A stretch of 63,217 bases of DNA, filler included, from Collodictyon triciliatum (taxonomy: Eukaryota), in NCBI GenBank assembly GCA_043381765.1. It is 12 parts of 11 records of this genome, joined end to end, with 100 filler letters (N's around TTAATTAATTAA, not from the genome) between each part and the next. Parts side by side here need not be neighbours in the genome. Positions count along the whole stretch, not along the records: positions 42,305 to 48,401 come from JBHJMP010004711.1; 11 more parts are not named here. One strand, 5' to 3'. The position numbers were made by a program, and so were the translations under genes. The notes under the pieces are model-generated. The model saw only the letters and a program-made list of their open reading frames with translations, did not search any database and was not told the origin of the DNA. Shown piece after piece: positions 6,104 through 62,381 of the stretch. How positions within the stretch are numbered: position 1 is the stretch's first letter; every line of letters starts with the position of its first letter.

Positions 6104-6203
6104 NNNNNNNNNNNNNNNNNNNNNNNNNNNNNNNNNNNNNNNNNNNNTTAATTAATTAANNNNNNNNNNNNNNNNNNNNNNNNNNNNNNNNNNNNNNNNN
6201 NNN
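6104..6203. other. Artificial contig linker 44N-TTAATTAATTAA-44N
   Basis: The same 100-nt linker recurs at 12305, 18506, 21358, 23619, 29808, 36008, 42205, 48402, 54598 and 60793. TTAATTAATTAA gives stop codons in all six frames. Confidence 0.98.
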
Positions 6204-8178: not shown

Positions 8179-10065
8179 ATAGATGAATAAAAAAGAACAT
8201 TCAAATGTAGCAGCAGAAAACAATTTGCATGGATGATAAAATCATTTCGCTTCAAACACAGCCACCTAGAATTTCGAAGGATGGGCGAAGCTCTGTTGTC
8301 AAAGACGAAATGGTCTCGATTCAAGTCCTGTCGCCAAAAGAAAAATTTAACAATAATAAATCAGTAAACACATCAAAAACCAAATCCTGAACTCAAACAG
8401 ACTCGTGGTTCCATAAATGCGCTCACAACTTCACCGAAGTTGGATATGAAATCAAACGAAAGGATGTATTTGAACATACAAGCAAACACATCAGTGGTAG
8501 CAGTGTTTCAGCATGGCTGAAACGTAGCCTCGAAGTGACTTCTTGAGACCTGGCATTTGAATATATTTGCACAACGGGCTGGTTTTTGCTTGCCTTCTGA
8601 TTTTCTTTTGACAGTGGACCCACCACTGAAGCTTGAAGAGCATCAAGCACATCCTTGAGAAGCACCCCAGCCATTTGATAATTCAGGCTCTCGCCATAGC
8701 CTTTTGTATGGTAGAACTCCAAGTCTTCAAAGTAAGATATAAGTTGCAAATCACCCTCATCAAACACCGTGCACCAAGGCGCTTTTCTCCAGTCTGAGAG
8801 AGCCTCCAGAGCCACGTGAAACCGGCATGCAGAATGCATCGAGAGCATATCAGCTATGTTCAGGTCCCACTCTGCTCCCAAAGCCAGTCTGTCCTTCACT
8901 CTTTTGACGATGGACGGAAAGTGCTCGGTTTTGAAGTCTTCGGCATACTTGAGATACTTTATTTTGTGGTGGACATTTTCCTGGAAAAAAAAGGGGGCAT
9001 TAATCTAGGCAATTATAGGTAAATATATGAAATGGTGAGATGATGAAAAAAAAATGTTAAAAGATACTAGGGTGAAAAAATTATGATTAAAAATTAAAAT
9101 GTAGAAATAAAAATAACGAAAAGGATGCCAAAGTGAAAATTGTAGACGAAATTACGGCATAATTGGGGCACATATTAAAAAAAGACAAAGTGTAGTCATT
9201 TGACGGCGAGTCGGTCACAGTAAAATATGGGGTGTATCTTTTTAATAAATTATAATGTTAAACCAAAACCATGGAAATAATTTTATGCTCAAAAGTGATG
9301 TATGTTTCATTTAAAGTTCTGGTGGAATAATCATGCCCGATAGCTTTGAGATTATAGAAAACAGACGACGATTTCATAGATGTGTGGTTGGATGAATACA
9401 GTCCGTGCATGAATGCCTGGGCACTCTGTCCAGCCCTGCGTATGAATGATTGTACTTTACATCAACTTTTCATTATGAATGGACCGGCTGTGACTTGATT
9501 AAAAAAAATTGACGTCACGGATGATGTTTATAGCAACAAGTATCACAAGGAAATTATACAGCAAACCATAGTTAAAGAATGATAATTTTATTAGAAACCT
9601 TGGGGATTGAGTGTGCTGCACATGAATGGCTTCGGGGTCATACAAGTCTGAGAATACTTTCTGAAATCTTTGCTTGAATCTGGCGCCAATACTGATGACT
9701 TCTTTTATCCCTGCCAGAACAAACAGCGATTACATTGAAGAGGTGCACAAGAAAATAAAAGATTCAATGGTTCATGTGGCGACAGAGACAAGACTTCATT
9801 TAGATATATATTTCACCAATCTTTATTTCGAAAAGAAAAAATCGAGATGCAGAAGAAATTAAAGAAGAAACCTTGTTCTGCAAGATACATCGCTTTATTT
9901 TTTTCATACGGTGACTTCCAACTGCGAATCCAAGCGTAAGCTAGATTTCCCACCGCATCACCCGCTTTTTCTGAGAGGATATCGTAATATTGTTCAGTAA
10001 ATTAAATGAATTTACTCACATAATTTTTTATAAGCACAGAGGCAGATGAGAAGACTTACATACAA

Positions 10066-12304: not shown

Positions 12305-12550
12305 NNNNNNNNNNNNNNNNNNNNNNNNNNNNNNNNNNNNNNNNNNNNTTAATTAATTAANNNNNNNNNNNNNNNNNNNNNNNNNNNNNNNNNNNNNNNN
12401 NNNNAAAATAGAAAATAAAAATAGAAAATAAAAATAGAAAATAAAAATAGAAAATAAAAATAGAAAATAAAAATAGAAAATAAAAATAGAAAATAAAAAT
12501 AGAAAATAGATAAATAGAAAACCAATCCGAGGAATTAGATATGAAAGTAT

Positions 12551-15500
12551 ACTTGTTTGTATGGTAAATATAAAAAGCCATATCGCGCCCCTGGTTCATA
12601 CCCAGGTCGATCAAACATTTTTCTCACTTTCCACCAAACGAATATTGGAAACCCGATCATGAAAAGAAAGAACACGACAATCGAAATTGAAAGCAGTTCT
12701 TTGTATTCAACTGAAAGGGGGGAACACTCAATCCAAGGGGCAAAGTTAAGAAACCATATACCAGTTCCAGAATCATATACAGTGCACCCAAATACACCAA
12801 AAACCTCTCTTGCGATCGAGTAGTAAATAAGAAACAAAAGATTCAAAGTAATGAAGACTGCCTAACCAAATTAGTCATGTGAGATATTATAAAGTATACA
12901 AAACATCTTAACATAACACTTGCCTTGTTTTGCATGCGTCCATATCCAAAGAAGTATGCTATTGCGCCAGATAGTATAAAAATGGGTATTCGAGAAAAAC
13001 TGAATATAATTGATTCAAAAACAGCATTAGAACCAATGATACATGCCAAATTTGGAAATGAGATGGAACCAAAAGACGAGGATATCTCGATAAAATTATT
13101 AAATTCCTCTGATTCAACGAGACCAGAGGAGATGACCGACAGAGTTTGCATGTGAAACATGATGATCCGAAGTTTCGCTTCAGAGAGAAAAATACAATAA
13201 ATAAAATAATAACGGTAGACAATTATTATTATTATTATTATTCATTTGGTTGATAAAAAGGAGATGTCACTATAAATGAAAAACATACCCGACTTTGGAG
13301 ATTCCGAAAAGTATAATTGTCCAATAAACAAACAGAATCCAATAGTACCTACTATGAGAGTCCAGTAAGCAGTTGTTTTCTCACATTTAATACACGACCT
13401 TCCTTGATTTCCATAACCCTCCTGGCATTTTGAACATGCATGGCCTTCATACCCATTCTCACATAATTTTATAGAATTAATGGATGAATTTTGGTTGGTA
13501 AGCACTGTCGGTATGACGGTTTTGCATGAATCAGGTTGAGGACATGGGAGAACCAATTTTATGTTTTCGATATTCGGGGAAGCGTAGCATTCTTTTAATG
13601 ACTTTCCATCCACACAGTCGCATTCTCCAGGGCATTGAATACAATTATTCCCGTAACCAAAATAATTTGGAAGGCATTGGCAGAATTCAAAATCATAGTA
13701 CATCGGATTTAAGTCAACGCGTGTTTCAACGAGACCTACGTTTGCAGTTGTAGAAGGGCACATGAAGAGATTCGTTTTGTCCTCTAAATTAAATGGTTCC
13801 TTATAGGACATATATGATGGAAGTAGATTTTCCTGTCCATGGTGCATACAGGTATTCTTAAATCCTAAATATTCAAGCTTAGAAAAGCGGCTATAAGATT
13901 CGGGGATGGTCCCTAAAATGGGGTTGCCGGAAAGATCTAGGCGAGTCCACTTTAAAAGTCTCGTCAAATCCCCTAACTTGGATATTTTATTGTTTTTCAA
14001 GCTTAAATCCTTTAAATTAGGGACATAATTAAAAATAGACCATTTTAGTTCCCCGTAAAGTCCATTATCATCTAAGTTGAGAGTCTCATAAGTATAGTTG
14101 TAGTACTTTGACGATGGCGATATAAAATCTCCGACTTCACCTGTGAATGAATTATTTCTCAAATCGACAGACACCAAATTGGCCAAATTCCAAAAAAGAA
14201 TGGGCATGTTCCCATGAAATCGGTTGTGAGATATTGACAAAGACTTGAGTTGGTACGTTGTTTCAAAGTACGTAGGTATCACACCACCCATTTTATTTCT
14301 TGATAAATCTATGTATTGTATGGAAGAAATACTCAAATCTGGAGATATGGAACCGCCTATATGATTCTCACTCACATCCAACGAAATCAACTTTGGTAAA
14401 TTTAAAGCAGGCAAGGTTCCATTGAGACGGTTTCTAAATGTTATGATTTCTTCTATGCAAAGACATCTTGTGAAGTCTGGGATCTCACCATGCAGTTCAT
14501 TTTCATATGCTGAAAAAGAAGTGATAGTATATAGGTGTTCGAATTGTGGGATATTTCCTATCATAAATTCATTTAGTTTTACTAAAGTGTCATTCGGGAT
14601 TATTATTATTTTACGAAAACTGGGCGTATGTAAATTTCAAATATTCTTTTTATTACCTGTAAAATAATTACGTGATACATCTAATGTATTTAAAATACTC
14701 AGCTGATCGAAGTTAATGATGCTCCCTGTAAAAAAAAAAGTATGAAATATAATATTGGATGATAAAAAATTCTTGAAAAGCTAATTATACAATTATAAAA
14801 ACAAACAAACAAACAAACAAACAAACAAACAAACAAACAAACAAACAAACAAACAAACAAACAAACAAACAAACAAACAAACAAACAAACAAACAAACCT
14901 GTGAACTCGTTATTCGAAAGGTTCAATATGTTGGCTTGGGTGATAAATCCGAAATTCGGAATTGACCCTTAAAAATCTTTCTTTCAAAATTTATCATATG
15001 CAGTTATTGTCTACATGTTTTCTTTTTTGTTCGATCATATGTTGTGGAAAAACAACTAAAACTACCACTAAAAAATAAATTAAAAGGAGGAATATAAATA
15101 TAAAAAACCATTCAGCTTGTTCCCGGATAGCTCCATTAGTGAAACAATTGGCATATTTGCAAAATCAGGAACAGTACCTGATATGATATGAAAGTGGGAT
15201 TTAATTTCTCTCTTTTTTCTTTTACACGCATGAGCGGTGACTCATATAATTTTATGATATACTTTATTTTGATAAAATATTCTAAATATTAAAAAATTCA
15301 ATCACCAGTGAGTTTGTTACTGNNNNNNNNNNNNNNNNNNNNNNNNNNNNNNNNNNNNNNNNNNNNNNNNNNNNNNNNNNNNNNNNNNNNNNNNNNNNNN
15401 NNNNNNNNNNNNNNNNNNNNNNNNNNNNNNNNNNNNNNNNNNNNNNNNNNNNNNNNNNNNNNNNNNNNNNNNNNNNNNNNNNNNNNNNNNNNNNNNNNNN

Positions 15501-17219
15501 NNNNNNNNNNNNNNNNNNNNNNNNNNNNNNNNNNNNNNNNNNNNNNNNNNNNNNNNNNNNNNNNNNNNNNNNNNNNNNNNNNNNNNNNNNNNNNNNNNNN
15601 NNNNNNNNNNNNNNNNNNNNNNNNNNNNNNNNNNNNNNNNNNNNNNNNNNNNNNNNNNNNNNNNNNNNNNNNNNNNNNNNNNNNNNNNNNNNNNNNNNNN
15701 NNNNNNNNNNNNNNNNNNNNNNNNNNNNNNNNNNNNNNNNNNNNNNNNNNNNNNNNNNNNNNNNNNNNNNNNNNNNNNNNNNNNNNNNNNNNNNNNNNNN
15801 NNNNNNNNNNNNNNNNNNNNNNNNNNNNNNNNNNNNNNNNNNNNNNNNNNNNNNNNNNNNNNNNNNNNNNNAAAGATGTAAACTTACCACCCAACGGATT
15901 ACTGTATATGTATACATGGGTCGCAAAATGAATGCAGCAAAAATCAGGCACTGTTCCTATTTTTTTTGGATGTATATGCTTTTAGCATATCTTTCAAATA
16001 TATTAATCAATTAAAAAGGATTAAATCGGTTCCGCTTCATATATACAACAGTGATTTGTCAACCTGTTAGTTGATTATCAAATAAGTAAAGCTTGTATAT
16101 ATTTGGCGTCTCATGAAATTCAGGAATGGTTCCTATTGCAAAGACGAAACCTCAAGTTAAAAGCCATAATTTCATACCGAATTTAAGCGATGCAAATATT
16201 TTTAAACCACATGATAGGCTATTATACCATAAATTTGAGTTCCTGTTATCGACAGCAGCTGAATATTTGGTATAAATGAAAACTCAGGTAATGAGCCTAC
16301 AAGATGAATTACGGTCAGCTATAAAAATAATAATATAACAATAAAAATGTTGATAGTTATAAAACCTGATATTTTTTTACTATATCCGATAACGAGGTTC
16401 GCAATCAAAGGAATTTCAGAAAAATTCGGAATGCTTCCATCAAGTGTGTTTCGATGAATTCTTAAATTTGTGACACATGGCAATCCCTTGAAATCAGGAA
16501 TGGTTCCAGTAATTTGATTAAGCCAAAGATCCAGATAAGAAAGATATGGCAAATTGAGGTCAAGTAAACTCCCATAAATTAAATTGTTTCCAAAATTAAT
16601 ATGTGTGAGGTATGGGAGTTGCTCCAATAGATCCGATAAATCCTGAATATCCCCTAAAAGATTATTCTTTTGCATTTGGAATCCTGTAACAGCACATGTA
16701 TTCTCCTAAAATATAAAATAATATCAGAGAAATATGCATTAATTTAAATACAAATAACATTTATCCGCGTACCAATATCGCTTCATAAGGACAATCTTTC
16801 ATGCAAATTACACCAAACCAATGGCAAACTGGCATGGTAGTATTATTCCACCCAGTATTATCAATCCAGTTCTCCCCATCAAAGGAATTAAAAATTTTGA
16901 GCAGAATGTCATATTGATCAGAAATTGTATTTTTAGACTTTTTTAAAGTGATTTCTCCTGCTTCATAAAAATCAATTTCATCGAACTCTTTTTCAAAATT
17001 GGATATCCTCACACCTTTCATTTTAGAATACCTTTGATTATCCAATTTTTCATTCAATTTCTTATTATCAGGCTCAGGAACGTTCTCTTGTTGATATGAT
17101 TGACTGCAATTCAAAATTGATGAATATCGTATGTATTCGCGATCCATTGGTATTTTGGAATGAAAGCAATGATGGTCGTATATCTCTAAAAGAATCTTAA
17201 AAGCATCGTCTTGTTTCAT
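12551..17219 (-). CDS. LRR ectodomain + Cys-rich region + multipass transmembrane receptor-like protein (3'-truncated, contains a gap)
   Basis: LRR N-cap (GENWIDNTGW..VCHWFGVIC), many LxxLxLxxNxLxGxIP repeats, Cys-rich CENGYEGHACSKCQEGY..CIKC, then several hydrophobic helices ending RYGFLYLPYKQ. An in-frame hydrophobic stretch (LLLLAFLFLF) lies just upstream of the ATG at 17219, so the true start may be in an unrecognised exon. Confidence 0.85.
14799..14898. repeat. (AAAC)n microsatellite starting at a splice donor
   Basis: Reads GTTTGTTT... on the minus strand immediately after a 69-nt LRR exon. Confidence 0.95.
15323..15871. other. Scaffold gap inside the LRR gene
   Basis: N run without a linker; LRR exons continue in the same orientation on both sides. 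Confidence 0.95.
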
Positions 17220-17474
17220 AGAAAGTAGGTCGTTTCGGGTGTAGTGACAACTATTTGAAAGGATAACTGGGTTATAAAAAAGAAATAAAAATGCAAGTAG
17301 TAATAATTCGTTTCTTTGTGAGCTTTGGCAAGGTTATGATCAAGTTCGACCTTTGGTGTGAAAAGCTATTGCGGGGGAAACTAACAACGATTAGCGATAG
17401 GATTATGAGCCAAAAGCTCCTTTTGAGAAGATTTCAGCAGGTTAATATACTTGTACTATTTTATGGTACATTAA

Positions 17475-17576
<102 letters not shown>

Positions 17577-18605
17577 GTACTAAATTGAGCATCATGGAGA
17601 CTTCTAAATATATTTGTACCTAATTTTCATCCATAATGTATAGATCTTGAAAGACTGAGATTTGTTAACGAACTTAGTCTGATATCATTTTTCTTGTAAT
17701 TTTATTTCCTCATTTATAACGAACATATTTTAAATTTGTAAAATGATTGAAGTTATCCATTTAGCTTTGTCCTTCTTATGATTTGTATTTACTTGTGTTA
17801 AAATAAATAAACATAATATTATTTTTCGAAAATGAACCTTTTTAATCAAGATCGGGGTTATGCGACCTATTTTTTTATTCAGTCATTTATTAAACATTCA
17901 AGTTAATCCTTTCAGACAAGAGCCTAGTATTTTAAATTGATTTTTTTTTATTATCGAGTTAAGTACATAAATATCTTTACCTATGTGTGAACGCGCCTAT
18001 CATGATATTTTGTTAAATTAAGATTTCGTCAGCAATTTCCAAAAATTAATCATTATTACTTCCTAAATTGTCTACCAGAGTGTATTTAAATATACCTCTA
18101 ATGCACTGGAGTCAAGTTTTTCTGATCTATGAGTTGAGTTGAAGTATTTTAGTATTTTTATCTTATTATTGAAATGTTAAAATGCAAGAAAAAAAAAACG
18201 TACGAACAAAAATCAAGTCGGTGCCATTTTGTAGTCGAACAAGCTTCTGTGGCACGGACGGATGAGGAAAGGAAAATATAGATAAGATTTAATGACATGA
18301 AAATGAACCCAATTTCCGCTAAAGGTAACGTATCCTCAAAGAGACTGATATAATTATATGTAAAATGAAGATGAAAAGGTGAAAAGATAAAAAAAATATA
18401 AAAAAATATAAAAAAAGATAAAAAAAGATAAAAAAGATAAAAAAAGATAAAAAAAGATAAAAAAAAGATAAAAAAAGATAAAAAAAGATAAAAAAAGATA
18501 AAAAANNNNNNNNNNNNNNNNNNNNNNNNNNNNNNNNNNNNNNNNNNNNTTAATTAATTAANNNNNNNNNNNNNNNNNNNNNNNNNNNNNNNNNNNNNNN
18601 NNNNN

Positions 18606-42158: not shown

Positions 42159-42454
42159 ACTTTGAATTGAATACGTGAGAGATAAACGCGAGCTAGATCT
42201 AAAANNNNNNNNNNNNNNNNNNNNNNNNNNNNNNNNNNNNNNNNNNNNTTAATTAATTAANNNNNNNNNNNNNNNNNNNNNNNNNNNNNNNNNNNNNNNN
42301 NNNNATTGTTATGGGACACAGATGAAGGCAAAGCGGATGGGAGAGCATAAATTCCAGATTCTGCGACAGGGTTGAGCGAGTTGCCAATCAATCAATCAAT
42401 CAATGACGCTTTTTTTTTTTATTATATTTTGATCTCGGTGGGATGTGCTTCGTT

Positions 42455-45400
42455 TTAATGAAGGAGCCAGCGTAGGAGACCAGGGGGATTGTTAGCTGAT
42501 GCTCTGTTCTGGTTTGGTTGTCTCGTGTTTTGTTGATTGTGGTTAGATGAAATGCCATTGAAAAGATCGACATGCTCTTGGGAGATGGGAAATTGGCTGA
42601 TTAGAGCTGCCGAGGGATATCCCTGGTGATATCGGAGGTACTGTTGTGGGCCGAAGAATGTAACTCCAGGATAAATGCGGGTATCGGTGGCTTTGATTCT
42701 CCCACTCACAAAAGGCAGAATAATATCGCCAACACAAAACCAGTACCTCATTGTGCTGTAGTCAAAAACAAAACCAAAGGAACATGGCACCGCTCCAATT
42801 AGCTTCGTCAGATTTGCATCTACACTTCGAACTGTGGACCTGAAAAAAGTTAAAGGATAGTTTATAGCCAAATGAAAGAGTATTCGCCAGTTATAGGAGA
42901 GGAGCGCTGATATGTGGATGGTTCACGGGGCAAAACTCATGTGGCGCAAATAAAAACGCAAAAAAAAAAAAAAATGCAAATTAAAACGCAAATTAAAATG
43001 CAAATTAAAATGCAAAAAAAAAATGCAAATTAAAACGCAAATAAAAATGCAAATTAGAATGCAAATTAAAATGAAAAAATCGAAAGAAAAATAATAGGAG
43101 AAAAGAAGGAGGACTCTGTTTTCCATAATGATGTACCTGCAATCATTTTCGGTCAGATATGCTTTTCGTTTTCTCAAATCTACAACCATCCGCACACTGT
43201 CCTCTGTTTCTCCAAGAATGTGATTGCCTACTGCGCGGTTGTATGAAAATCCAAAAACTAAAATACCCTCTTTCCCTGGGTGGATTACCTCAAATTCAAA
43301 GAAATCAAACAGGAAGCCATCTCTTTTGTAAAATGGCTCAGTCCTTTGCCATGTGTAGAAATCAGGAGATTCGATGTATGAACAAAGAAAGAAAGGAAAG
43401 CTGACGACAAAAACTTTGGGATGAGATGACTGCGCAATCGTTGGACAATTTGCATACATGTGATGGCCTTTCTCATTTGGCGGACTCTTTAGGATGCGGA
43501 GAAAGAACGTTGCACAGGGACACATTATTCGAACGGCTGGTGTTAGCTGTAGATGTGGTATGAGGGATATCGAGACTGTAGTAGCTTGGGTTGGACTTGC
43601 AATTGTTAAACGGTTACTGTTGTAGTTCAAATGAAGAGTAAGTAGAGATTGAGGAGAGTTTTTGTAATCTGCTATGATGCCAATTGATTTACCATCAAAA
43701 AATATGTGTCCAGTTTTTGTATCAAATCCAAAAGAGTTGCGCCCAACACCCGGCACGATGTCTGGTTGTGAGTCGTATGGCACTAGGCCAATAATTGCAT
43801 GTCCATTCGAGACGTTGAAATAAAGGAATTCGTGGCCTGAAAACCCTGACCATGATACGTCGGAAAGGATGGTAAATTGTGGGATTCTTGTCGTTCCGCA
43901 AAGAATGTCGACGTAATCATGTGCCGAATCAACTAACAAATGAACGCCATCTATCACCGTGGGAGATAGAGCAGTGACTGGGGTAGCTGTGTTCGATGAG
44001 AAAGGTCACGTTAAATGCAAGTAACTTCTTTATTATTGATAAATATACCGAATGATAAGAAATAACGAGCATCACCATCTGCATGAAGAAATTGATTTGA
44101 ATGGTAGAATAAATCGATACACGCACCAGTAATAGCAACCGGTATCGGATTCGCTTGGCCATTTTCAACCTATGTATTTATAAAGAGGTAAACATTTTGA
44201 TAGTGACAACGACCATAATTTTTTTTAAACTGGCATGTGCACTGCGTATTTTATAGAAAAAGTGAAATAATTCACCGAAGCATTCTTTTTAAATGGAAAA
44301 AGATTTGCCTTTTCTTCCTCCTGGGTAACGTTGTATTTTATGTAAAGTAGCTCAAATGGATATACCATCACAAATAAAGCAAACCACACACAAAAGCTGA
44401 TTCCCCATATCAGTATGAGAATAACATATAGTAATAGCAATATAGCTTGCTCAGCAATCTTAAGACCTTGAGCCGATACCAGGTGGACAGCAAATAAAAA
44501 AGGTGCAGCGAAAATCAGAATGACTGTGGAAATAAGCCAGTGTATGGACAGAGCAAAAAAGTCAACAGCAAAGTAAATCACACCTCCTTTAGTTTTCAAT
44601 GGAGTGGACCACACAGAAAGCAGATTTGGCGTGGGAATGTATGTGACATACCAAGTCATAAAGTTTGAAGGCGTAATCAACTTCGACCAAAACGCTAACC
44701 TCTGGAGCCACGCTTCTCTCAGTAGCCATATAATAGGGAATAAGGCGTTGAGCGGGGGAGGGAGGGATACATTTTTCAGGGTAAAAACTGTTTCACAAAA
44801 GAGCATGTTGTATTGCTTCGACGACTCAGATTGCACGCTTTCGTAAGTGCCGCTCAGGATTGCAATTAGAAAATTCAGTAAAATAATCATTGTGATTAGA
44901 GAGAAGATATATGAATCTACTCTTCCCAGTATTTGTTGAACTTCAACAAACCCATTTGCATCAAATCCTCCAAAAATTGAGCTCATGGTTACATACAATG
45001 AATTCGAGTATAGGCTGTAGTCCGCCAAACGCTGCCCATAAATTGTGTAAAAATAGCTACAAAAAGCAACCAAAAATGCCAACAAAAAAATAAAGAAGCG
45101 AATAATATCACGGAACATGCTTTGTACTATGAATTGCATCGGACCTAAATTCGGGTCGATATTTGTGTAGAACAAAAGCCTGATGAAACTCAGCAGAACA
45201 ATCCACCCAACTAAAACCTTTTCAACAGACCAAAAATACGAAATGTCGAAATAGTTTTGCGTTTGGTCAATCCAGCCACTGGAAGAGCTACTAGATTGAC
45301 TAACAAGCAGGCTAAGTTCCGTTTCTACATAAGCCGTAACAGAAAATAGTACAAGTATCAGCATATCATAGAAAAACCAGGAATCATAAATGTCATTTCT

Positions 45401-47463
45401 CATGGTTAAGTGAAGTCGCTGGATTTGGTAAAGGAATAGAGATATTGCCCACACCAGCAAAACCAAATGGTAGCCAGCAGTTTTGATAGAGTCCTTGACA
45501 ATCCACTCTCTTGGTATTGACTCGACTGATACCCAAACATTGCACAAACCCGTGGGTAACACTTCTATATTGATTACTCCAATGGATAAGCATCCTATGT
45601 TGTCAAATGACACGACAAACTCGATGGCAACATATCTAGTCAGGTGGTCGATCCAGTAGTCATCCTTAAGTTCTTGCACTTTTTCTCGCATGAGCGATTT
45701 ATTTGACAGCTTAACAAACTCAACAAACCCGTCGCACTCGTACCAAAAGTTGGCCGGAGACACGGATGATAATCGATTTCTTGAACACAAATCTTTGAAT
45801 CGGAATTTTCCCTGGGGTCCAAACGGACTTTTGTCTTTGTGCTTGGTTATGTAAGGTGGAGAGCATTGTGGGAACTGAGATGGTGCGGGGTCAGTGCCAA
45901 TCGCATAAATATCTTGGCCACATCTCGTCTCTTGTACTCTCAACTGCCGCAAGCGCAAGCCCAAAATCGGTCGGTAAAAGGAATGAGAGATATTTTTTGA
46001 ATCTGAAGGAATGACACTCCAAAAACTGGCTGTATTATCAGCGTAGTTTTCGATTAAATCATCCTCGATGTAAGGCCAAATATGACCAACGTCGGATATA
46101 CCTGACGTATCGATTTTTTTCTCCAACGCACTTGATGCCGTGAATGCACTCACGTCCCCCGTTGTATTTTTATCTATGACGTATAGCAACAGGAGTGTCA
46201 AGAATAAAAGGTACAGAAAGAGTGACATAAAATATTTTGCTCGGATCGACCTGCAAAATCTTGGAATTATGTAAGCGTAATAAGCCAGTGCCCAGAACCA
46301 CGCCCAACTGAAAAATGAAGCATATGAATCTAATTTGGGCGGCACGGTTCTTGAATAATCCAAGTAATCCTTCGTACTTGCTTGATTACCCCACAATTTA
46401 TGTATGTAATCGTTTACGGCTGGCATCTCCAGGATAAGGAAGGCGCTATGTTGTATGCTGAGTTTTATGATCTCATCCAACTGCTCTTCGCCAAGATGGC
46501 TCAAACTGCTTATAAGGTTGCTCGCATGAATTTCGAAGGAGTCTCGCAAGGATGGAATAACCTTGGGTACACTGGAGAAGATGCCAAACAGTCTTAATGA
46601 ACGAATAAGCTGGTTCCGCTCCTTTATAAAAAGGGCACTAATTTCATCTGCCACAGTAACACTAATGTCATCGTTTCCAACTAAAACGATGGTGCACAAG
46701 GGGAGGCTGCATAATTCCACCGGAAAAGAATTCTCTGCAGTGTTGAGTGCATTTTAAGGCTGGTGAAATGAAAGCATGTTCTTCAAATGTATGAATATCT
46801 CTCTGGAGGCATAATAGATTCAATCAAACCTTGTGCTTTGATGTTGATATTTGAAGAATCAAGATTATCAAACATTTCCTTTTGAATTTGACAGTTGTCT
46901 TTTGGTAAGATATTGAGAGATGCGTCGTTAATCGTGTCATTCCTCTTGCTCCTTGATTTTCCATCACAAAGGCTGTTTTCTTGCAAAGCTAAGATATTGT
47001 AGCTAAAGTCAATTCGGTGAATACTTTGTAGACACCCAACATCGCTTGGAATAGATAGCAAATAATTGTGGGACATATCCAATGATTCGAGCAAAGCAAG
47101 CTGGCTTAGTCCTGGTGGAATCGACGATAAACCGCAATTCTTTATTGCCAGATCCCGGAGTTGAGTGAGCTCAAAAATAATCGATGGAAAGGCAAGACAG
47201 TGAGCCTGCTCGATGGAAAGCTTTGTCAAACCAGTCATCAGAGTCATCGAGGATGGTAGTGATACGCTGCTCTGGCCTCTGGAAAGCGCAAATGAAATAA
47301 AGAGTTCTTTCACATTGGTAAGCAGGCTGATCTCTTCTGGTATTACAGTTTGATCGATATGGTCGAGAACCAATCGCGTCATTTGCAGGAGCTGTGGGAC
47401 TGTGCATCCTTTCATATCAGCCAGGACATCCAGCGGATTCGTCGCCGTGCTGATAAACTGCAT
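42455..47463 (-). CDS. LRR - TRP/polycystin cation channel - SPRY - SPRY fusion protein
   Basis: LRR exon (47463-46830) splices in frame via a GT-AG intron (46829-46735) to the channel exon (46734-44276: LRLRQLRV..C, WIDHLTRYVAIEF, LGPMQ, SIFGGFD, IILLNFLIAILSGTY, LPPPLN). Further in-frame exons lead into two SPRY-like domains; stop at 42455. Confidence 0.88.
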
Positions 47464-47809
47464 GTCGCCTTTGCCCAACGGTGGCACCCTCTTTCTTTGG
47501 ATGAGTTCTTAACCTTTCTTTTCTTTTTCGCCTTTTTTTTTGGTCTTTTTGTCCGCGGCGATCTATTGTGTTGATTGTTTGTTCATTCACAAATGTAATG
47601 GTTTCAGTAGTGGTAACGCACTAAATGATGGGGCTGGTTTATTCAGAGTGTGTAGCCTTTGTACTTTCCCATTAAAAGAAAAGAACCTGATTCGCGTCAC
47701 CGATTCGTTTGCAGCTTTAGTTGGCCTTTGCGATGGGAGGTGGCCTCTTCTTTCAGACTTCGTCCTGTTATTTTTTTTTTTTTTCGTTTTTTCGTTTCTT
47801 CGTTTCTTC

Positions 47810-47906
<97 letters not shown>

Positions 47907-48501
47907 TTTTATTTTGTTTTATTTTGTTTTTTTGTTTGTTTTGTTGTTTTGTTTGCATAATCCCATAAGCTGCCATAGGCCACTCTTCCGTTGACATACA
48001 TCTAATTCTGGAAATTAAATAGTATTTGCCTTGGCAGAATTGTTTTTCTACAAAAAATCTACATGATGACTTATTATTGTAATATATAATCAAAAAATTA
48101 TAGTGTTTACACTTGCTGCACAATGAAGGTAATATCCCGATAGGATATAAATTCCAGCCACTCGCCACGCCCTTTGTGCATCGACCGAACTGTCATCATC
48201 AAAGGCATCGTTTTCATCTCATAAGTGACACCAGATTTATGCAAGGGATCCTTTCCAACGCAAGAAGCAAAAAACAAAACAAAAAACAAAAAAACAAAAA
48301 AAACAAAAAAACAAAAAACAAAAAACAAAACAAAAAACAAAACAAAAAACAAAACAAAAAACAAAACAAAAAACAAAACAAAAAACAAAACAAAAAACAA
48401 ANNNNNNNNNNNNNNNNNNNNNNNNNNNNNNNNNNNNNNNNNNNNTTAATTAATTAANNNNNNNNNNNNNNNNNNNNNNNNNNNNNNNNNNNNNNNNNNN
48501 N

Positions 48502-51500
48502 CATCATCCATCATCCACTTCGGCAACGTCTTCATGATTGGCGGAGGAATAAGGAGATTTTCCAAGAGAACCTCATCCATTTATACTCTTTCACTAAGTG
48601 AGATTTCATTTTAGTAAATTTTGACAACATATTGAAAAAAGTATTGAAACAACTCCCTGATTCAAATAGATGATTTTTGGTGCCGTGGATACGAAATTAT
48701 CGACAGCAGTATTGGATTCATTACAGATGGGAGTGGAGACTTTCAGTATTTTCCAGGGACAAATTGCGAATGGGATATTCAGAATACAAACTTTATGATT
48801 GTAATATTATCTCGTATTCAACATGTTGTCGATGAAATTTTAAACTGGGTTTCTATTTATATAAGGTGACCCAAGTAGATTTGACCGAAGGAGTATTATT
48901 GTCATTGGAATCACACAATGAGTGTGACATGGATATGATTTTGAACACTAAATATATTAGAAATGTAGGGCTGCAATATTTACACTCGATTTATTGAATA
49001 AGCAATTTTGTTAAATCACTTTCAAACCATAGATACACCTGCAACATGTAGATTATGGAACCCTCATTAAAATACCATCGGCTCAGTCTCGTTTGACATT
49101 CAAAGTTCCGTCCAGCGCATCAGCAAATCAGGGATTCCAGATTAAGTTATTGTGTACGTTCAAATTATATATGTTATAAAAAATTGAAATCTCGTGAATG
49201 GATGTCTTATCTTACACTCTCACTAGCATGCAACAAAGGATTTAGCGCAAACATAGAAGGTTGCTTTTGTGAGAAAGAAAATTACATAAACTTTCGAGGT
49301 GATTGTATCCCATGCCCTTCAGGAACGTACCAACCAAAGATGAACCAAGTAATGAAATAAATTTTAGTCCTAATATTTCACATTTATACATACTTTTAGC
49401 CTAATTAAAATTCTTTATTTGTTAAACCAGACATCTTGCATCGATGAGGCTGTAACCTCAAATATCAAGAAAGGTAATAACTGAGAGGTGATTAATATGT
49501 TCATCTCTATTGTAGGTATTTATTCGAAAATATTCATATATACGGCAGGTAAATACGAAGTGAGGCAAACCCAGTCGATCGATATGAGTATTGAGATACC
49601 TCCGACAGTTTTTGGTCAGATGGTTTCAATTAACGAAACGTTTTACCTTATTGGTGGGAGCACATCGGCAGATACTAGTGCCTTCGAGCATTACCACGCT
49701 ATGGACACGGTTTTTTCGACAAATAGACTTGGTAGTAGTTCAGTTCATGTATTTATTAACTTTTCATGCTTCGATTAATAATATGTCTTATTTTTTACGC
49801 TGCAGTCGAATCGAAATGGATTCAAAACGAATTTCATGGGGATGTACCGCATGGTCGAGTCCACTTTTGTGCAGCAGGGATGGATTCATATGCAGTCCTG
49901 TTTGGCGGTGAAATGAGCGCAAACGATGACTTTGTGTACTTTTTATTCCCTGATACAAAAAAGTGGGAAAGAATGAATCGTGCTCCTGAGAATCGAATCG
50001 GAGCTGCATGTGCAAGAGATAGAAATAAAGTTTACGTATATGGAGGAAAAAGTGTATGCATTTTTATGAAAATAATGAACTATTCTATCTTAATTTTTAT
50101 AAAAATGATATGGTAAATTCCTGATCCACTTAAATCAACTTAGAAAAATGGATTTGTCGAAAATTCAATGTTTTCTTATACCCCAGGTTCACTTAAATTA
50201 CATAATATGAATAAATTCCATAGATTACATTACATGTATGCTAATGAAAATATTTTCTCCAGAAAATGATTCATGGGATAAGCTTTATATCGAAGGAAGA
50301 GCACCTCCCCTTTCATTCAGTGTCATGGTCATTTACAAAGATATACTGATTGTATTTGGTGGATTTGATGGCGTATCAGAAAATAGTCACTTTTACCTTT
50401 TTAGCCAAGGTCACATCTCTATTTGATTAAAAAATATTGCCCTAATTATTTACACCATCATATATTCTAATATTTATACCATAGGAAAGGAAGATACATT
50501 TTATGTGAACAATACCATCGCATCCCTGAATGAATGTATTGTTTGCAATGAAGAGGGAGGCTTGTGTGATTTTTCTCGTCAAATATTCTCGCATGGAGTT
50601 TTTGGAAATGAAATTCAAATTTTCGGAGGTTTTAGGTAGGGAGAGGCTCTCGAAGATATCACTGTAATAAATCTAGGTAAACAACACAGCAGTTTATTGA
50701 ATCGAAAACCAAAATTGTTTTACTGTAATTAAATTTTTAATCGATTATTTTTTTGGTATTTTTAGATACCTTTCAAGTAGAGTTCCGCGAAAATTATGGA
50801 CTAGAGAACCCAAAATTACCATTAGCTTATCCGCCACCAAAATATGGTGCAGCTTTTGCTATGCAGAATTCTTCTCTGATGATTGTTGGAGGTGCAAGCT
50901 CAAGCAATATTGTTGGGAATGACAGATGGACATGGGATGCTGGTGATTTTGAAATGGATATACGCACAATAATCGATAGCTAGTATTATCTCATTATGGT
51001 AATCTTTATTAACACGCTCATGAAGGACTCCGAACATGGTCGGATACATCCATCAGAATGTCACCTGTGCATCGAAGTGACTCATCAGCAGTAAAGTTAG
51101 GTGAAGATACTTTCCTAATTTTCGGAGGTGCTACCGAATATCTGGAGGAACTATTGCTGAACGACATATGGCAATACAACATAGGTCGTAATGAAACTTT
51201 TTTTATGAAGAAATTAAAATTTTGGTATTTTGCTGCGTATTTGCATCAATTTAACGGAATGAAATTCTTAGTGGACCGAAAATGGGATTGCCTGTTTGCT
51301 GAATCCGATAATAATGGTCCTCCTCCGAGAGCTGGCGCTGTGATATCAGTACATAATTCAAAGCTGTACGTCTATGGGGGCAAAACAGATGTTTTAATTT
51401 TTGATGAAAACATTTGGTTGTTCAGCATTAGTAAGTGAACTGTAATGCCAAGTTGATTTCTTTTCACAAAATTATCACATATTCAAACTAAATGGCGTAA

Positions 51501-54697: not shown

Positions 54698-55215
54698 CTC
54701 GACCTGATGATGCAGAAGCCTTTTGCTCTATCCCAGCAAAGTTGGCCCGTAACAGCATGTAGCTGGGTAGACTCACACATTTCACAGTTTTCATACAGAA
54801 TCATCCACCGCGCTTGTAGCGGCTCGGGCGTGTTTGGCAGGGGTGATGGGATTCTGCTCTCACAGAGCTGTACCTTGAAGCTCGGGCATAAGCGATGGAT
54901 AAGATACCACATTCTACGCTGCCAAAATCCTTTCGGATGGGTGAGCATATCTGTCCACCATCTCATCGTGAGCGATGTCCATGCAATACCAGGCGTTATG
55001 AGTCCCATCCCTCCCTCTGCAGGTGGCTTAGAGAGCGTCTTGATTTTATATTTTTGATTATTCGTTGTGATGAAGTTGCGGCAGTTGTCTTTCAGCTCCT
55101 TCAGCCTTTGGGGATTCATCACAGTGCCTTTCATGTTGTAGACAAGAGTGCTTTGAAATTTTTTCGGTAACAATATATGGAGCCCTACATGAGTGTGGAG
55201 ATCGAAAACGCAAGC
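54698..55215 (-). mobile_element. Fragment of a non-LTR retrotransposon (L1/Tx1-like) ORF2, post-RT region
   Basis: G.HILL..FQSTLVYNM...L...CRNFI...LSKPPAEGGMGLI..SLTMRWW..L...FW matches the conserved L..P..GG(L/M)G region downstream of the RT core in L1-clade ORF2. No YxDD in the fragment. Confidence 0.7.
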
Positions 55216-56295
55216 TTTAGACAAACACACTTGAATGCACGAGAATCGAGGACACAACTCGACCAAGGCCCCTCGGCAACACAGATTTGTCGATCAAAGA
55301 GAGCCCAGGAGCAGAACCTGTACGGAGCTGGCTGCTACGTCCGCCTTCGAGGTAAGCACAAACTGCCCCAGAACCATGAAGCCCGCAACCAAGGGAAGAG
55401 AGAAATCACTCAAGTCCTTAAAGAATTCAAGTGCTACGAGGAGAACGTGAACATGCAACTGTACGATCAACCCCAAGGATACACAGTAGCCTTCCTGCAC
55501 CAACAAAACGCCGCAGAGTTTGCCAAAGCAGGACAGTTTAAACTGCTCAATCGTTCTTTCCACCCATACCAAGAAAGGCCACCTATCCACTCTGCTATCA
55601 TCGGCGATATTCCCCCAAGCTTCACCAATGAATATATTGAAGAGGCCTGCAAAGCAATATTTTCGCCTACCATAGTTTACTATGAAGCTGTGGACAGTAT
55701 CTGGACCAATGACGCGCTGGTCAAGTTCCCGGCATCAGAAATATCCACAGTGCCAAAAAAGAAAATAACCCTGCTAGGATTCCTCGTCCCCTTTATACTC
55801 CTCTCCGAACGGAAGGAGAAGCCTAAACACGATACCAAACACAACAAGCACCAGGGCAAATACCATGGGAAACCCAAACTCAAACCCTCGCAACCCACGC
55901 AGTCCAGGGGTGAAAGACGGGCCCAACCCTCCCGGACACCATCACCCGAAGCCATGGAAGACGAGGACGATGAACCACCTCAGCCCACTACCGCCACCCA
56001 ACCAAGAAGCTCCTCTCGCAAGGAACTCCCAAAGAAAGAAATGAGACTTTGGGAAATGCGCGTCATCCTGAAACCAACCGAACATACAGACCAAGGCACG
56101 GCTTTTTCGTCTGGAAGAACCCTTGAGAGGAAGACGACTACAGCAAATAAACCAACAGTAAGCCTGAGCTCCAAACCCCAATATAGACCACCGAGAGTGG
56201 AAAGGCCTACATCAGCGCCCGCGCCTGATTTTCAATCAAGCTTCCCGCACCTGATAGAAAACACGAGTCGAGATCTGGATATCAGGTCTAGTTGA
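55177..56295 (+). CDS. ORF A: LINE ORF1-like (tandem RRM-like) protein with disordered tail; true start uncertain
   Basis: TVAF...NAAEF...AIIGDIPPSFTNEYIEEAC...TNDALVKF...PKKKITLLG resembles the tandem-RRM pattern of L1/Tx1 ORF1. The annotated ATG lies outside the repeat boundary. Confidence 0.55.
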   Translation: MEPYMSVEIENASFRQTHLNARESRTQLDQGPSATQICRSKRAQEQNLYGAGCYVRLRGKHKLPQNHEARNQGKREITQVLKEFKCYEENVNMQLYDQPQGYTVAFLHQQNAAEFAKAGQFKLLNRSFHPYQERPPIHSAIIGDIPPSFTNEYIEEACKAIFSPTIVYYEAVDSIWTNDALVKFPASEISTVPKKKITLLGFLVPFILLSERKEKPKHDTKHNKHQGKYHGKPKLKPSQPTQSRGERRAQPSRTPSPEAMEDEDDEPPQPTTATQPRSSSRKELPKKEMRLWEMRVILKPTEHTDQGTAFSSGRTLERKTTTANKPTVSLSSKPQYRPPRVERPTSAPAPDFQSSFPHLIENTSRDLDIRSS

Positions 56296-56360: not shown

Positions 56361-57197
56361 ATCGCTCGTGAGTTCAGGAAGACCCGTGCAAGGAAGCCGC
56401 CGGCAAGTCTGTCTGATCGGACAGTATTTTTGCACAAAGTCGAACAAGTTGATTACAACAAGAACAAGGCATGCAGACTCACCGATGCGCTCGCCTCCTT
56501 CTTGAAAGCGAACAAACTTTGGGAAGAGTCTATCCAATTGCGCTTACCGGACAGCGAAGGCCTTTGCCTGATTGCCTTCCGCACTGCAGAAAACGCCCGA
56601 AAGCTTCTGAAGCTGAAGCAGGTAAGTTTGGGCGATATCATAACCAGCTTCAGCAGAAGTAAACCAACAGAGACCTCGGTGATGATCTACCAACTACCGC
56701 TGGACGTGTGGCCGCAACTTATTCGTGAGGAGCTGAAGCCGTTCAGACCGACCCACGTGGACATCAAAAAGGAAAAAGGCTTACTCACAGACACGGCTGT
56801 GCTGAACCTTCTTTGCCACAAGAACCAGCTCCCTGCAAAGTTTACGGTCACGGGAAAAAAGTGTCCAAAGCGCATCCCCAAAAAGCGTCCGCCAGCCGCG
56901 AATAACGAACGACAAGTAAAAGCCCCGCAAAAGAATACACCTGCCAAGCAGACAAGCAGCAACGGGGTCAAGGAAGCCAAGGCCAGGCAACAACAGAGTT
57001 CGCAACACTCACAGCAGATACGCGCATACGGCGACAGCGACGATGACATGGAAGGGCAATCTCGGTTCCTCTTCAGAATCCTCGCACTCGAGTCAACACC
57101 AACACCGGACAAGCCCGCACATCGCAAGACCCAAGAGCAGCGCATCTCCAAACCCCGAAAGAAATCCCACTTAAACTACCCATTCAGACTGACGTGA
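56361..57197 (+). CDS. ORF B: second ORF1-like (tandem RRM-like) protein; no ATG start, possibly degenerate
   Basis: LIAFRTAENARKLL...SVMIYQLPLDVWPQLIREELKPF...GLLTDTAVL...LPAKFTVTG has the same motif spacing as ORF A. The frame is open from the TGA at 56358-56360. Confidence 0.55.
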   Translation: MAREFRKTRARKPPASLSDRTVFLHKVEQVDYNKNKACRLTDALASFLKANKLWEESIQLRLPDSEGLCLIAFRTAENARKLLKLKQVSLGDIITSFSRSKPTETSVMIYQLPLDVWPQLIREELKPFRPTHVDIKKEKGLLTDTAVLNLLCHKNQLPAKFTVTGKKCPKRIPKKRPPAANNERQVKAPQKNTPAKQTSSNGVKEAKARQQQSSQHSQQIRAYGDSDDDMEGQSRFLFRILALESTPTPDKPAHRKTQEQRISKPRKKSHLNYPFRLT

Positions 57198-58458: not shown

Positions 58459-59569
58459 ATGAGGTCGTTAGTGCAGCTTCTTCTGTTTCTTTTTGCAGTG
58501 TGTGTGATTGGTCCTAGTATAAGGTTAAGATCATCAATAGAAAGCAATAATATGACTAAAGGGGAAATACTCGAAGTAGAGAATGTCAAGTCACTTAGCA
58601 TGGACTATTCTAGTGTTAATATGGAAGACAGGTACAGTGCAGTTGATCTTCGACTTCCGAGACTTAGTGATGACCAACTTTTAGACTTGATAAGAGGATG
58701 TAAACCGGAGCGTCCTTTGATTATATATTACAATCGCGTGCCCAAGTGCGGTTCAACATCAATGCAGTACTATATTAGACAAAACTCACAGTTATCGATT
58801 ACTTTCGGAAAAAAATATGTTCCTTTTACTTATTCTCCGCATAATACTAAGGATCATCCAATAGCAGATCCTTACTCGTTATATATAAATGATGAAGAAG
58901 CTGAGGTACGAAAAAATGAAATTATGTCGCTTGGTCCTGCAGTTGTGGACAGTCATACCTCCTTCTATCCTTACTTCCCTGTTAACTCACACAACACTGC
59001 ATCAGGATATGGGGACATAGGTTACATTAATGTGGTCCGCGAACCTTTTGAAAGATATCAGTCCTTTAAGTCTTTCAAGTGTCGTAATACTGCTAAAATG
59101 TGCGATACTTCTATCAAGGAAGACATGGTTTCATATTCCAATCAGCAAATGACCTACATATGTGGACATCAGCCCGAGTGTATGCCGAGAAACCTGGATT
59201 CTCTATACATCTCCAAAGTTAGACTGATTCAGACGTATGCCGTTGTCGGTTTAACAGAATACTTGAACCAAACCTCACAACTACTGACCAAGATTTTCCC
59301 TGAATTCTTTTACGACGTAAGAAATCTTAGAAGCTTGCATCATAATCATATAATGAAGCTAATATCATTTTAAAATATTTATTCCGTTATGCAAGGTCAT
59401 AAAAGATGAAAAGCGTAATCAAGGCATGTCCAACACTTCATATTCTTCCAATTCTTCCGCCGAAGATATATCCTACTTCAAACGCACGAACGAGTTTGAT
59501 ATTATGTTCTATGAATTTGCCAAAGAAGTATTTAAGAAGAAGCTAGAGTCCTGTGGTATCTCTGAATAA
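58459..59569 (+). CDS. Heparan-sulfate/uronyl 2-O-sulfotransferase-like Golgi type II protein (2 exons)
   Basis: N-terminal signal anchor, 5'-PSB motif IYYNRVPKCGSTS, 3'-PB motif YINVVREPFERYQS, YICGHQPEC and YAVVGLTE. Exon 2 ends D..FYEFAK..F..KLESCGISE-TAA (59567-59569). Confidence 0.88.
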
Positions 59570-61009: not shown

Positions 61010-62381
61010 ATAGCCCCACCAGACGAGAAGGAGATGCGATTTTTTGATTTTCAAATTCGACTCCCGAAAACATATGGAGGCATAAAAGAATACATAGCGC
61101 GATTTCCGAAACTTAAGCCTGGCGAGAATAAGGTGATTTTTTTTCACAATTGTTTCTTTTGGCATTGCAAAGATCGACTAGATGGTTGTGTTTGCTTAAA
61201 CACATTTTTTGTGGCTACATTGCAGATGACCTACGAAGCAACTCCCTGGTACATATTCATGCCGATGACCGCACGTCTCATTCGACATTATGTGCCGAAT
61301 GCGAAGATTGTTGCCGTTCTTAGAAATCCAATTGACCGTGCATGGTCCCATTACCATTTCGACCACCTGAATAAACAAGGAGTGAATGTATCATTTTCTG
61401 AAGTCGCTGAGTAATTCTTTTTGATTGATTCTGCGTATAAAACAAGCCATTTTACTTACCCACCGTCCTGCACAAAAATTGAAAGGAAGAATAAAAAAAA
61501 AAGAAGCCATTTTACTTAATTTCGTCTTTAATTTCTCATAGAATGGAAATGTCAACGATTAAGTCGTGCAGAGAAAAGTTCGAGGCCTATGGTAAGCTAC
61601 CCTTTTGTTCATATTTGTTCTTCTTTTCAGCAGTTTCTCGACAACAAGATGCTTTTTTTCATTTATACATCGCCCGTGAGAAAAATATTCATGTCTCGGT
61701 ATTTAAAGACCTCCTTCATAATGAAACCTTAAATAGGGTTTACGGAGTATATTTGGAACTGTTTTCTGTTCTCTTATCCAAAGAGTGGACCATATGCAAC
61801 TTTTACCGGAAATGCACATTGGCACACACTAATTATCAATGGAGTCTATTCAGAACTAATTCAAACCTACTACAAAGTAATTTGCTACGATTAAATCCAA
61901 ATATCATTTCCTGAACATGACTACGCGCTCCCTTTATTTGTATAGCGCGCCATATTGTTTTTATTTATCTTACACCTTTCATAGTTTTTTGACAGGAATG
62001 ACATCTACGTAGTGAAAAGCGAAGACTTTTTCGAAAATACTCCTAAGATCATGGACGAACTCATTGAGTTTCTGGTATGTTCCACTTTATGAAGCCTGAT
62101 TTGTTTTCTTTACTCTGCACAAACATTAGTCCTTATTGTTTCTTTTCAACATCACTTGTAACCCTTCTACCTCGATTTTACGTGGATTTTAACGTACGCA
62201 GGGTCTGGATCCTTACGATTACTCATTCTTGGAGGGACGTGGAAACATGAATATTTTAAACAACGATTATGAAGATATGCCGGCATCAATACGGAGGAAA
62301 CTGGTTGAATTCTACAGAGAGTACAACGATGATCTTTCTAAATTAACGGGTATTGACACAGCGTCATGGAATGAGATGTAG
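61010..62381 (+). CDS. Sulfotransferase of the HS 3-O-sulfotransferase/NDST type, 5'-truncated
   Basis: KEMRFFD, YEATPWY, PNAKIVAVLRNPIDRAWSHY, IYVVKSEDFF..P..IMDELIEFLGL and LVEFYREYNDDLSKLTG..W; stop TAG at 62379-62381. Confidence 0.88.

Follow-up and report, generated by a model that had tools for sequence, protein, structure and literature searches.

The stretch analyzed here (hereafter the window) comprises 63,217 nucleotides (nt) of DNA from Collodictyon triciliatum (assembly GCA_043381765.1), and its minus strand carries, at 47463–42455, a gene that we interpret as one five-exon unit encoding a TRPP channel subunit of 1482 amino acids (aa). The predicted protein begins with leucine-rich repeats (LRRs), continues with a channel of the polycystin-2 (PKD2) type, and ends with two SPRY domains. 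We assign a probability of roughly 60% to the interpretation that this is a single gene whose LRR and SPRY modules dock or regulate the channel through partner proteins. The order LRR–channel–SPRY–SPRY had been proposed in the original prediction and proved correct; the channel, described there as TRP-type, can now be specified as a polycystin-2-type TRPP channel. The fusion is a transcribed, lineage-restricted family, at least five diverged clusters of which share this layout in Diphylleia rotans. Because the D. rotans transcript proteins carry the same layout collinearly, we regard the fusion as real and not as an artifact of the gene model.

Gene structure and splice junctions

The window is a chain of contigs, mostly of ~6.1 kb, joined by N44-TTAATTAATTAA-N44 spacers (at 6104–6203, 12305–12404, 18506–18605, and eight more places), and its different pieces are therefore not genomic neighbors. 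The entire gene lies on the minus strand of one spacer-bounded contig (42305–48401; 6.1 kb), as had been stated before. The DNA is AT-rich, with a local G + C fraction (GC) of 0.37–0.39 around the gene. Under bacterial start rules, the minus-strand open reading frames (ORFs) of this region have 234, 831, 344, and 138 aa, and the first three are listed with exactly the lengths from which the original prediction had assembled the protein. The gene model consists of the following parts.

46830–47463, minus strand: exon 1, start codon 47463–47461; model aa 1–211; about six LRRs, counted by eye
46735–46829, minus strand: intron 1, 95 nt, GT..AG, phase 1; family conservation resumes directly after the acceptor
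44276–46734, minus strand: exon 2, model aa 212–1031; linker, pre-S1 helix, S1, TOP domain, and S2–S6 with pore
Within 44276–46734, minus strand: 3' part of exon 2; cytosolic helices, then two extra hydrophobic helices
44170–44275, minus strand: intron 2, 106 nt, GT..AG, phase 0
44049–44169, minus strand: exon 3, 121 nt, model aa 1032–1071; linker into the first SPRY domain
43987–44048, minus strand: intron 3, 62 nt, GT..AG, phase 1
43137–43986, minus strand: exon 4, model aa 1072–1354; SPRY 1 and the first half of SPRY 2
42840–43136, minus strand: intron 4, 297 nt, GT..AG, phase 2; packed with short direct repeats
42455–42839, minus strand: exon 5, model aa 1355–1482; second half of SPRY 2, Q/N-rich tail, stop codon 42457–42455
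42418–42423, minus strand: AATAAA hexamer 32 nt past the stop, a possible polyadenylation signal

Joined together, the five exons give 4449 nt in a single frame with one stop, located at the end only. The four junctions and their phases (1, 0, 1, 2) had been proposed previously, and all of them stood: every intron is of the GT–AG type and the frame is continuous. The GC of the introns is 0.28–0.37, versus 0.40–0.46 in the exons. Exon 3 is in frame only upon splicing, and retention of any one of the introns leads to a stop within 12–71 codons. The joining of the exons into one frame is far beyond chance.

The family in Diphylleia rotans

A HMMER search of 1.84 billion representative sequences with exon 2 returned 1077 matches at E ≤ 1e-3, 106 at E ≤ 1e-10, and eight at E ≤ 1e-30. 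The matches listed are the best 150 of the 1077, so that a family member whose channel part is poorly conserved could have escaped the listing. All eight proteins at E ≤ 1e-30 are unannotated Trinity transcript proteins of D. rotans (EukProt EP00002). The best match, P0001 (E 2.8e-83), has 1478 aa, versus 1482 aa in our model; its match to exon 2 begins at residue 194 and leaves ~500 residues after it, i.e., its proportions are those of the model. Four of the six D. rotans proteins scanned (P0001, P0002, P0004, and P0005) carry LRR, Polycystin_dom, PKD_channel, and SPRY, all above the Pfam cut-offs, and P0003 has the same layout with a SPRY match under the cut-off (E 0.005). P0006 is without a Pfam SPRY match, as is its longer isoform P0154; by Pfam, P0008 consists of LRR and channel and P0007 of the channel only.

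The spliced model and P0001 were then compared along their whole length. BLASTP gave one high-scoring segment pair (HSP; E 9e-104), which runs from 14–1346 of the model to 7–1318 of P0001, crosses three of the four junctions, and includes exon 3. When the model was aligned with six D. rotans proteins in MAFFT, collinearity extended across the fourth junction, and none of the junctions coincided with a large gap. When P0001 was searched against the raw window with tblastn, exons 1, 2, and 4 were matched in order on the minus strand: residues 7–182 matched 47424–46921 in exon 1 (E 5.6e-15), the match to exon 2 starts at 46732, which is the first full codon past the acceptor, and residues 1101–1134 matched 43792–43691, the SPRY core in exon 4. 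The identity of the window protein to its D. rotans relatives is only 23–30%, and the D. rotans paralogues are <50% identical to one another. They also differ in length and LRR content: P0003 has 2106 aa and six stretches matched by LRR_8, and P0001, with its 1478 aa, has one.

The next matches after D. rotans (E 3.2e-22 and weaker, among the best 150 of 1077) come from an amoebozoan, insects, a nematode, and metagenome contigs, and are PKD2-like proteins of the ordinary kind. Six long non-family matches were scanned with Pfam: five of the six carry ankyrin repeats, two (P0024 and P0044) carry LRR and ankyrin, and none carries SPRY. Environmental PKD2-like proteins of this kind have ankyrin alone or LRR plus ankyrin (P0010, P0013, P0029, P0024, and P0044). 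Protist polycystins appear to acquire cytosolic repeat domains of various kinds, and, judged from the predicted domains, N-terminal LRRs on PKD2-like channels are recurrent in uncultured eukaryotes. Three features described below, namely the helical linker, the pair of helices after S6, and the tail of SPRY domains, mark a family seen, among the best 150 of the 1077 matches, only in D. rotans and the window. The nearest sampled relative for the gene is, on present sequence matches, a diphylleid (CRuMs).

Further searches added no member to this family. A metagenome scan with seven queries yielded 13 short loci; for three of the seven (the model, P0001, and P0004), none of the 13 loci matches beyond the channel part (model aa 637–949 at most). 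A word-index search with exon 2 gave no match, because the divergence of the relatives leaves no 5-mers in common; the same search with an alignment of six D. rotans proteins was dominated by unrelated LRR proteins, and P0001 was the only family member among the 120 matches listed. An ESM Atlas search with P0001 gave no usable match. Full-text searches of the literature, as far as the texts they reach are concerned, turned up no polycystin with SPRY and none with the LRR–PKD2–SPRY layout, so this set of accessory domains appears to be without description in the literature searched. The original prediction had presented the architecture as unfamiliar, and this part of it agrees with the searched literature; the architecture is not a one-off of this genome, given the D. 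rotans clusters that share it.

The polycystin channel core

Exon 2 encodes the channel, for which the following regions were delimited.

45518–46099, minus strand: polycystin (TOP) domain, the S1–S2 insert; Pfam PF20519, E 2.5e-10, 40.7 bits versus a cut-off of 23.6
44834–45463, minus strand: PKD_channel, S2–S6 with pore helices; Pfam PF08016, E 1.5e-12, 47.9 bits versus a cut-off of 22.4
44345–44587, minus strand: two post-S6 hydrophobic helices (putative TM7 and TM8), model aa ~928–1008; Kyte–Doolittle peaks 2.37 and 2.93

In a phmmer search against solved chains, exon 2 matched PKD2L1 (E 3.5e-19) and PKD2 (E 8e-18), with TRPC6 and others at 5.7e-5 or weaker and a weak match to PKD1L3 (E 1.3e-4). 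The AlphaFold2 (AF2) model of exon 2, built from a 66-row alignment, has a mean predicted local distance difference test score (pLDDT) of 83.0 and a predicted template-modeling (pTM) score of 0.80. In Foldseek, this model is closest to structures of PKD2 and PKD2L1 (E ~1e-18; TM-score 0.76–0.83, normalized to the target, over ~490 columns), and its beta-rich insert agrees with the PKD2 structures. C271 and C290 of the TOP domain are the sole invariant columns in the 66-sequence alignment and, by analogy with PKD2, may form a disulfide. The S6 motif N-F-L-I-A-I-L-S-G-T-Y is kept. Taken together, the sequence matches and the predicted structure assign exon 2 to the polycystin-2-type TRPP channels, with a PKD2 fold.

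The selectivity filter departs from the typical form. The window protein reads F-G-G-F-D where PKD2L1 reads L-G-D-F-D and P0001 reads F-G-D-F-D, i.e., the acidic residue of the L-G-D filter is replaced by Gly and the second Asp is retained. In P0001–P0005 and P0154, the residue after the Gly is D, N, D (within F-A-D), E, E, and D, respectively. Ion selectivity may differ from that of PKD2, because the window has G-G-F-D versus G-D-F-D in PKD2L1 and in the best D. rotans paralogue, and the variable filters suggest that it probably differs among family members as well.

Two hydrophobic segments after S6 are present in all seven family members examined. In the AF2 model they appear as helices at 717–753 and 759–804 (pLDDT 57–73), and their hydropathy suggests that they cross the membrane. 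An aromatic segment before S1 (model aa ~350–373) was considered as a further transmembrane helix and rejected, being under the hydropathy threshold and polar in homologues.

The N-terminal repeats and the helical linker

Exon 1 contains tandem repeats of ~23 residues with an LxxLxLxxN core. Its Pfam matches (LRR_14, 2e-7; LRR_4, 1.7e-5; LRR_8, 4.1e-5) are significant and under the curated cut-offs, which its homologues exceed. A phmmer search against the PDB matched LIC11098 of Leptospira (1e-31), LRRD1 (4.8e-28), SHOC2 (2e-27), and LRRC8A (3e-16). By these similarities the repeats are classified as SHOC2/LRRC8-type, closest to those of the cytosolic SHOC2, LRRD1, and LRRC8. Kyte–Doolittle hydropathy revealed no hydrophobic segment upstream of aa 375 and no signal-peptide-like stretch in exon 1, and BLASTP and MAFFT both showed that the N-terminus of the model matches the start of P0001. 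The earlier proposal of a cytosolic LRR is thus plausible, since the repeat type, the missing early hydrophobic segment, and the matching start all favor it; the location itself is a prediction.

Between the LRRs and S1 lies a linker that consists of helices only.

46343–46732, minus strand: helical linker between the LRR and S1, exon-2 residues 1–130; AF2 block with pLDDT 85–96

A hidden Markov model (HMM) of this linker matched the window model (E 1.4e-41) and 16 of 159 stored proteins, namely 15 of D. rotans and, marginally, P0072 (E 0.0012). The all-helical linker therefore appears to be specific to the LRR–PKD2–SPRY family.

The SPRY tail

Exons 3, 4, and 5 match no Pfam family at E ≤ 10 and, in phmmer searches, no PDB chain at E ≤ 10, so the window sequence alone is insufficient for a SPRY call. 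The assignment comes through the family.

43415–43918, minus strand: SPRY domain 1, divergent, model aa ~1095–1262; the aligned regions of P0001, P0002, P0004, and P0005 are Pfam SPRY above the cut-off

In these four proteins, the SPRY regions (PF00622) score 37–78 bits versus a cut-off of 26.3, and in P0004 Pfam detects SPRY twice. Five SPRY segments of D. rotans were combined into an HMM, which matched the window model with a whole-sequence E of 1.3e-6 and domains at 1130–1172 and 1298–1413; among the 159 stored proteins it matched seven, i.e., its five seeds and two seed isoforms. A profile of exon 4 together with the five D. rotans tail segments (A3) matched SPRYD3 (3.4e-12), RanBP9 (6.5e-11), and the SPRY domain of ryanodine receptor RyR2 (3.5e-9) in the PDB, as well as RanBP10 and DDX1, all matches being confined to the first half of the profile. 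The second SPRY-like domain (model 1298–1413, domain E 0.033) straddles the junction of exons 4 and 5, which supports intron 4. With hhalign, domain 2 of the family aligned to domain 1 with a probability of 97% (E 7.8e-11, 113 columns), the first copy being the sole object of comparison for the second. The family profiles accordingly point to a tail of tandem SPRY domains, and it is through them that the SPRY domains of the window protein are supported.

Reads from the source organism

Four sequencing runs contain small shares of the stretch, and the parts they leave uncovered are uninformative. Among them, no spliced transcript of the source organism was seen, and no run recorded as RNA contains the stretch. 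One run (X1), which we only guess to be RNA, yielded two contigs of at least 99% identity, 43120–43734 and 43759–44217, without a splice joint; the latter retains intron 3 and terminates within intron 2. At 44217 this contig has a loose end of 24 letters without a match in the window, which, as we presume, resemble a template-switch oligo as used for cDNA libraries of the SMART type. If X1 is RNA and the letters are such an oligo, the contig would represent a sense-strand molecule with its 5' end at 44217, unspliced or internally started. The molecule could be pre-mRNA, DNA carry-over, or the product of an internal start. With intron 3 retained, the frame ends after 12 codons of that intron, so that the SPRY tail cannot be translated from this molecule.

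The other three runs are freshwater metagenomes that carry short pieces of the stretch, some at 99% or more, and the source organism is for this reason regarded as a freshwater microbe. The read mapping passed over three repeat places. Two of them lie upstream of the gene (47758–47959 and 48264–48401) and consist of a ~100-nt poly-A/T run and A/C-rich microsatellites; the third, within intron 4 (42948–43100), is filled by short tandem repeats of ~16–18 nt.

Proposed mechanism and alternative interpretations

If the subunit behaves as its family suggests, it would assemble as a PKD2-like tetramer. The two extra helices, by crossing the membrane, would give an eight-helix topology, and the LRR and the SPRY pair would consequently both be cytosolic; the TOP domain would be extracellular or luminal. 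Four LRR arcs would then be present on each tetrameric channel, along with eight SPRY domains. LRRs of the SHOC2 type and SPRY domains of the RanBP9 or RyR type are mostly scaffolds for protein partners. Because both added modules are protein-binding folds of this scaffold kind, we propose that through them the channel is docked to cytosolic partners, which may be cytoskeletal or flagellar structures or signaling proteins, and that attachment of a partner would be coupled to the gating or the placement of the channel. Precedents are Chlamydomonas PKD2, which is reported to be attached to axonemal microtubules (PMC7265326), and the ryanodine receptor, which is likewise decorated by SPRY domains.

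Several observations weigh against this interpretation. Conduction is not assured, because the filter is without the Asp of the PKD2L1 L-G-D motif. The LRR scores of exon 1 are under the curated Pfam cut-offs, exons 3–5 match neither Pfam nor the PDB, an AF2 model of exon 4 from a 6-row alignment reached a pLDDT of only 43.3, too low for a fold search, and the post-S6 helices are modeled at a pLDDT of only 57–73. The runs from the source organism gave no spliced transcript, and the X1 contig is unspliced at intron 3 and ends inside intron 2.

The same read evidence would suit an artifact of the gene model, in which LRR, channel, and SPRY belong to different neighboring genes and their in-frame joins are coincidental: no spliced read of the source organism exists among those mapped, and X1 is unspliced at intron 3 with its loose end inside intron 2. 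We consider such an artifact very improbable, since D. rotans transcript proteins contain all of the parts in the same order and at nearly the same length, and a single BLAST HSP spans three of the junctions. Moreover, the SPRY part has neither a start codon of its own nor an independent frame, retained introns end the frame in 12–71 codons, and retention of intron 3 stops it ahead of the SPRY domain. The original prediction had left room for transcripts in which the three parts are separate genes; in D. rotans, a cultured relative, single transcripts carry the fused layout, which speaks for the fusion at the level of the family, not of the source organism.

The main sober alternative to a docked channel is a non-conducting or unexpressed copy, i.e., a decaying paralogue without channel function or mature mRNA, which would act at most as a scaffold or as an auxiliary subunit of heteromers. 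The change of the filter Asp to Gly where P0001 retains the Asp, SPRY domains beyond Pfam detection, a nearest relative that is only 26–30% identical, and an X1 run that shows the unspliced form only are all in keeping with decay. On the other hand, the frame of 1482 codons is intact over five exons with a single stop, the residues invariant in the family (the TOP cysteines and the S6 motif) are retained, and variation at the filter position (D, N, E, or G) is seen in D. rotans paralogues that are expressed, too. We therefore judge decay to be unlikely.

A ligand sensor, the idea of the original prediction, was also considered, in which the cytosolic LRR, perhaps together with the SPRY pair, would recognize an intracellular molecule, for example a pathogen or damage signal, and binding would open the pore, so that one polypeptide would combine sensing with cation influx. 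Both modules are recognition modules and are probably cytosolic, and the wide variation in LRR content among D. rotans paralogues that are <50% mutually identical would suit a receptor family. Against it, no immune-type signaling domain (NB-ARC, TIR, or death domain) is found among the Pfam matches of the window and D. rotans proteins, and the LRR and SPRY types matched here are, as noted, mostly scaffold modules. This reading is unlikely in our view. A bolder version, in which the family consists of diversifying single-polypeptide intracellular receptors whose paralogue-specific LRR and SPRY ligands directly gate the polycystin pore, is decidedly unlikely; to our knowledge, no TRP channel is known to follow such a receptor-channel logic, and, if it were true, that logic would have arisen in the CRuMs protist lineage.

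Comparison with known channels

The window protein resembles PKD2 and PKD2L1 in having a TOP domain between S1 and S2, the cysteine pair, a six-helix pore module, and the S6 motif. It differs from them in its N-terminal LRR and linker, the two extra post-S6 helices, the two SPRY domains, the filter G-G-F-D versus G-D-F-D, and the absence of a Pfam EF-hand from the window protein and six family proteins. With D. rotans P0001–P0005 it shares the domain order, the linker, the post-S6 helix pair, a collinear arrangement from LRR to SPRY, and a similar length; unlike the window protein, these relatives have SPRY and LRR matches that reach the Pfam thresholds, and the number of their LRRs varies.

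The RyR SPRY domain, SPRYD3, and RanBP9/RanBP10 match the first SPRY of the family by profile (E 3.4e-12 to 3.5e-9). Ryanodine receptors are tetrameric cation channels whose SPRY domains face the cytosol, as those of the window protein would if its predicted topology is correct. Their pore, however, is not homologous beyond the six-helix class, and their SPRY domains precede the pore, whereas those of the window protein follow it. No RyR, RIH, or IP3R domain was found in the window protein; only the SPRY profile matches RyR, and the pore matches PKD2.

LRRs of the same type occur in SHOC2 and in LRRC8 (SHOC2, 2e-27; LRRC8A, 3e-16). In LRRC8, the volume-regulated anion channel (VRAC), which is a pannexin-like hexamer, the LRRs are C-terminal and cytosolic; in the window protein, in contrast, the LRRs are N-terminal and sit on a TRPP cation channel. 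P0024 and P0044 also have an N-terminal LRR on a PKD2-like core, but they are distant (E about 1e-14 to 1e-16), have ankyrin in place of the family linker, and lack SPRY. Polycystin-1, which the original prediction did not mention, has N-terminal extracellular LRRs behind a signal peptide, 11 helices, and REJ, GPS, and PLAT domains. REJ, GPS, and PLAT are absent from the matches in the Pfam scan of the window protein, which has no N-terminal hydrophobic segment.

Polycystins have been studied mainly for kidney disease and ciliary sensing, and their gating and tethering are still debated. The family described here would be a natural PKD2 variant with two well-understood protein-binding modules at its cytosolic ends and two extra membrane helices, and it may be a tractable model for the control of a polycystin pore by attachments in the cytosol. 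It would add SPRY to the accessory domains known on TRP channels, and it could be used as a marker of diphylleid-like protists, which form a deep eukaryotic lineage that has been sampled poorly. Protists commonly shuffle domains onto channels, which tempers the significance of any one combination.

Other features of the window

A Pfam scan of 16 other ORFs of the window gave LRR, LRRNT_2, His_Phos_2, Kelch, and sulfotransferase matches only. On another contig, a 464-aa ORF (13245–14636, minus strand) has strong LRR_8, LRR_1, and LRR_4 matches, and a 190-aa ORF with an LRRNT_2 cap (16764–17333, minus strand) lies on the same contig; together they may be an extracellular LRR receptor-like gene. 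This candidate gene has no channel part, and tblastn with the family matched its LRRs only (E 0.001). Three ORFs of 441, 374, and 278 aa (26759–28081, minus strand; 55171–56292, plus strand; and 56361–57194, plus strand) lie in stretches with a GC of 0.43–0.49, which is unusually high for the window, and have no Pfam match; they may be mobile-element or orphan genes. The remaining observations concern exon-sized ORFs at 58459–59370 (plus strand), 61010–61411 (plus strand), 8426–9004 (minus strand), and 51013–51435 (plus strand), which match Sulfotransfer_2, Sulfotransfer_1 (weakly), His_Phos_2, and Kelch repeats.

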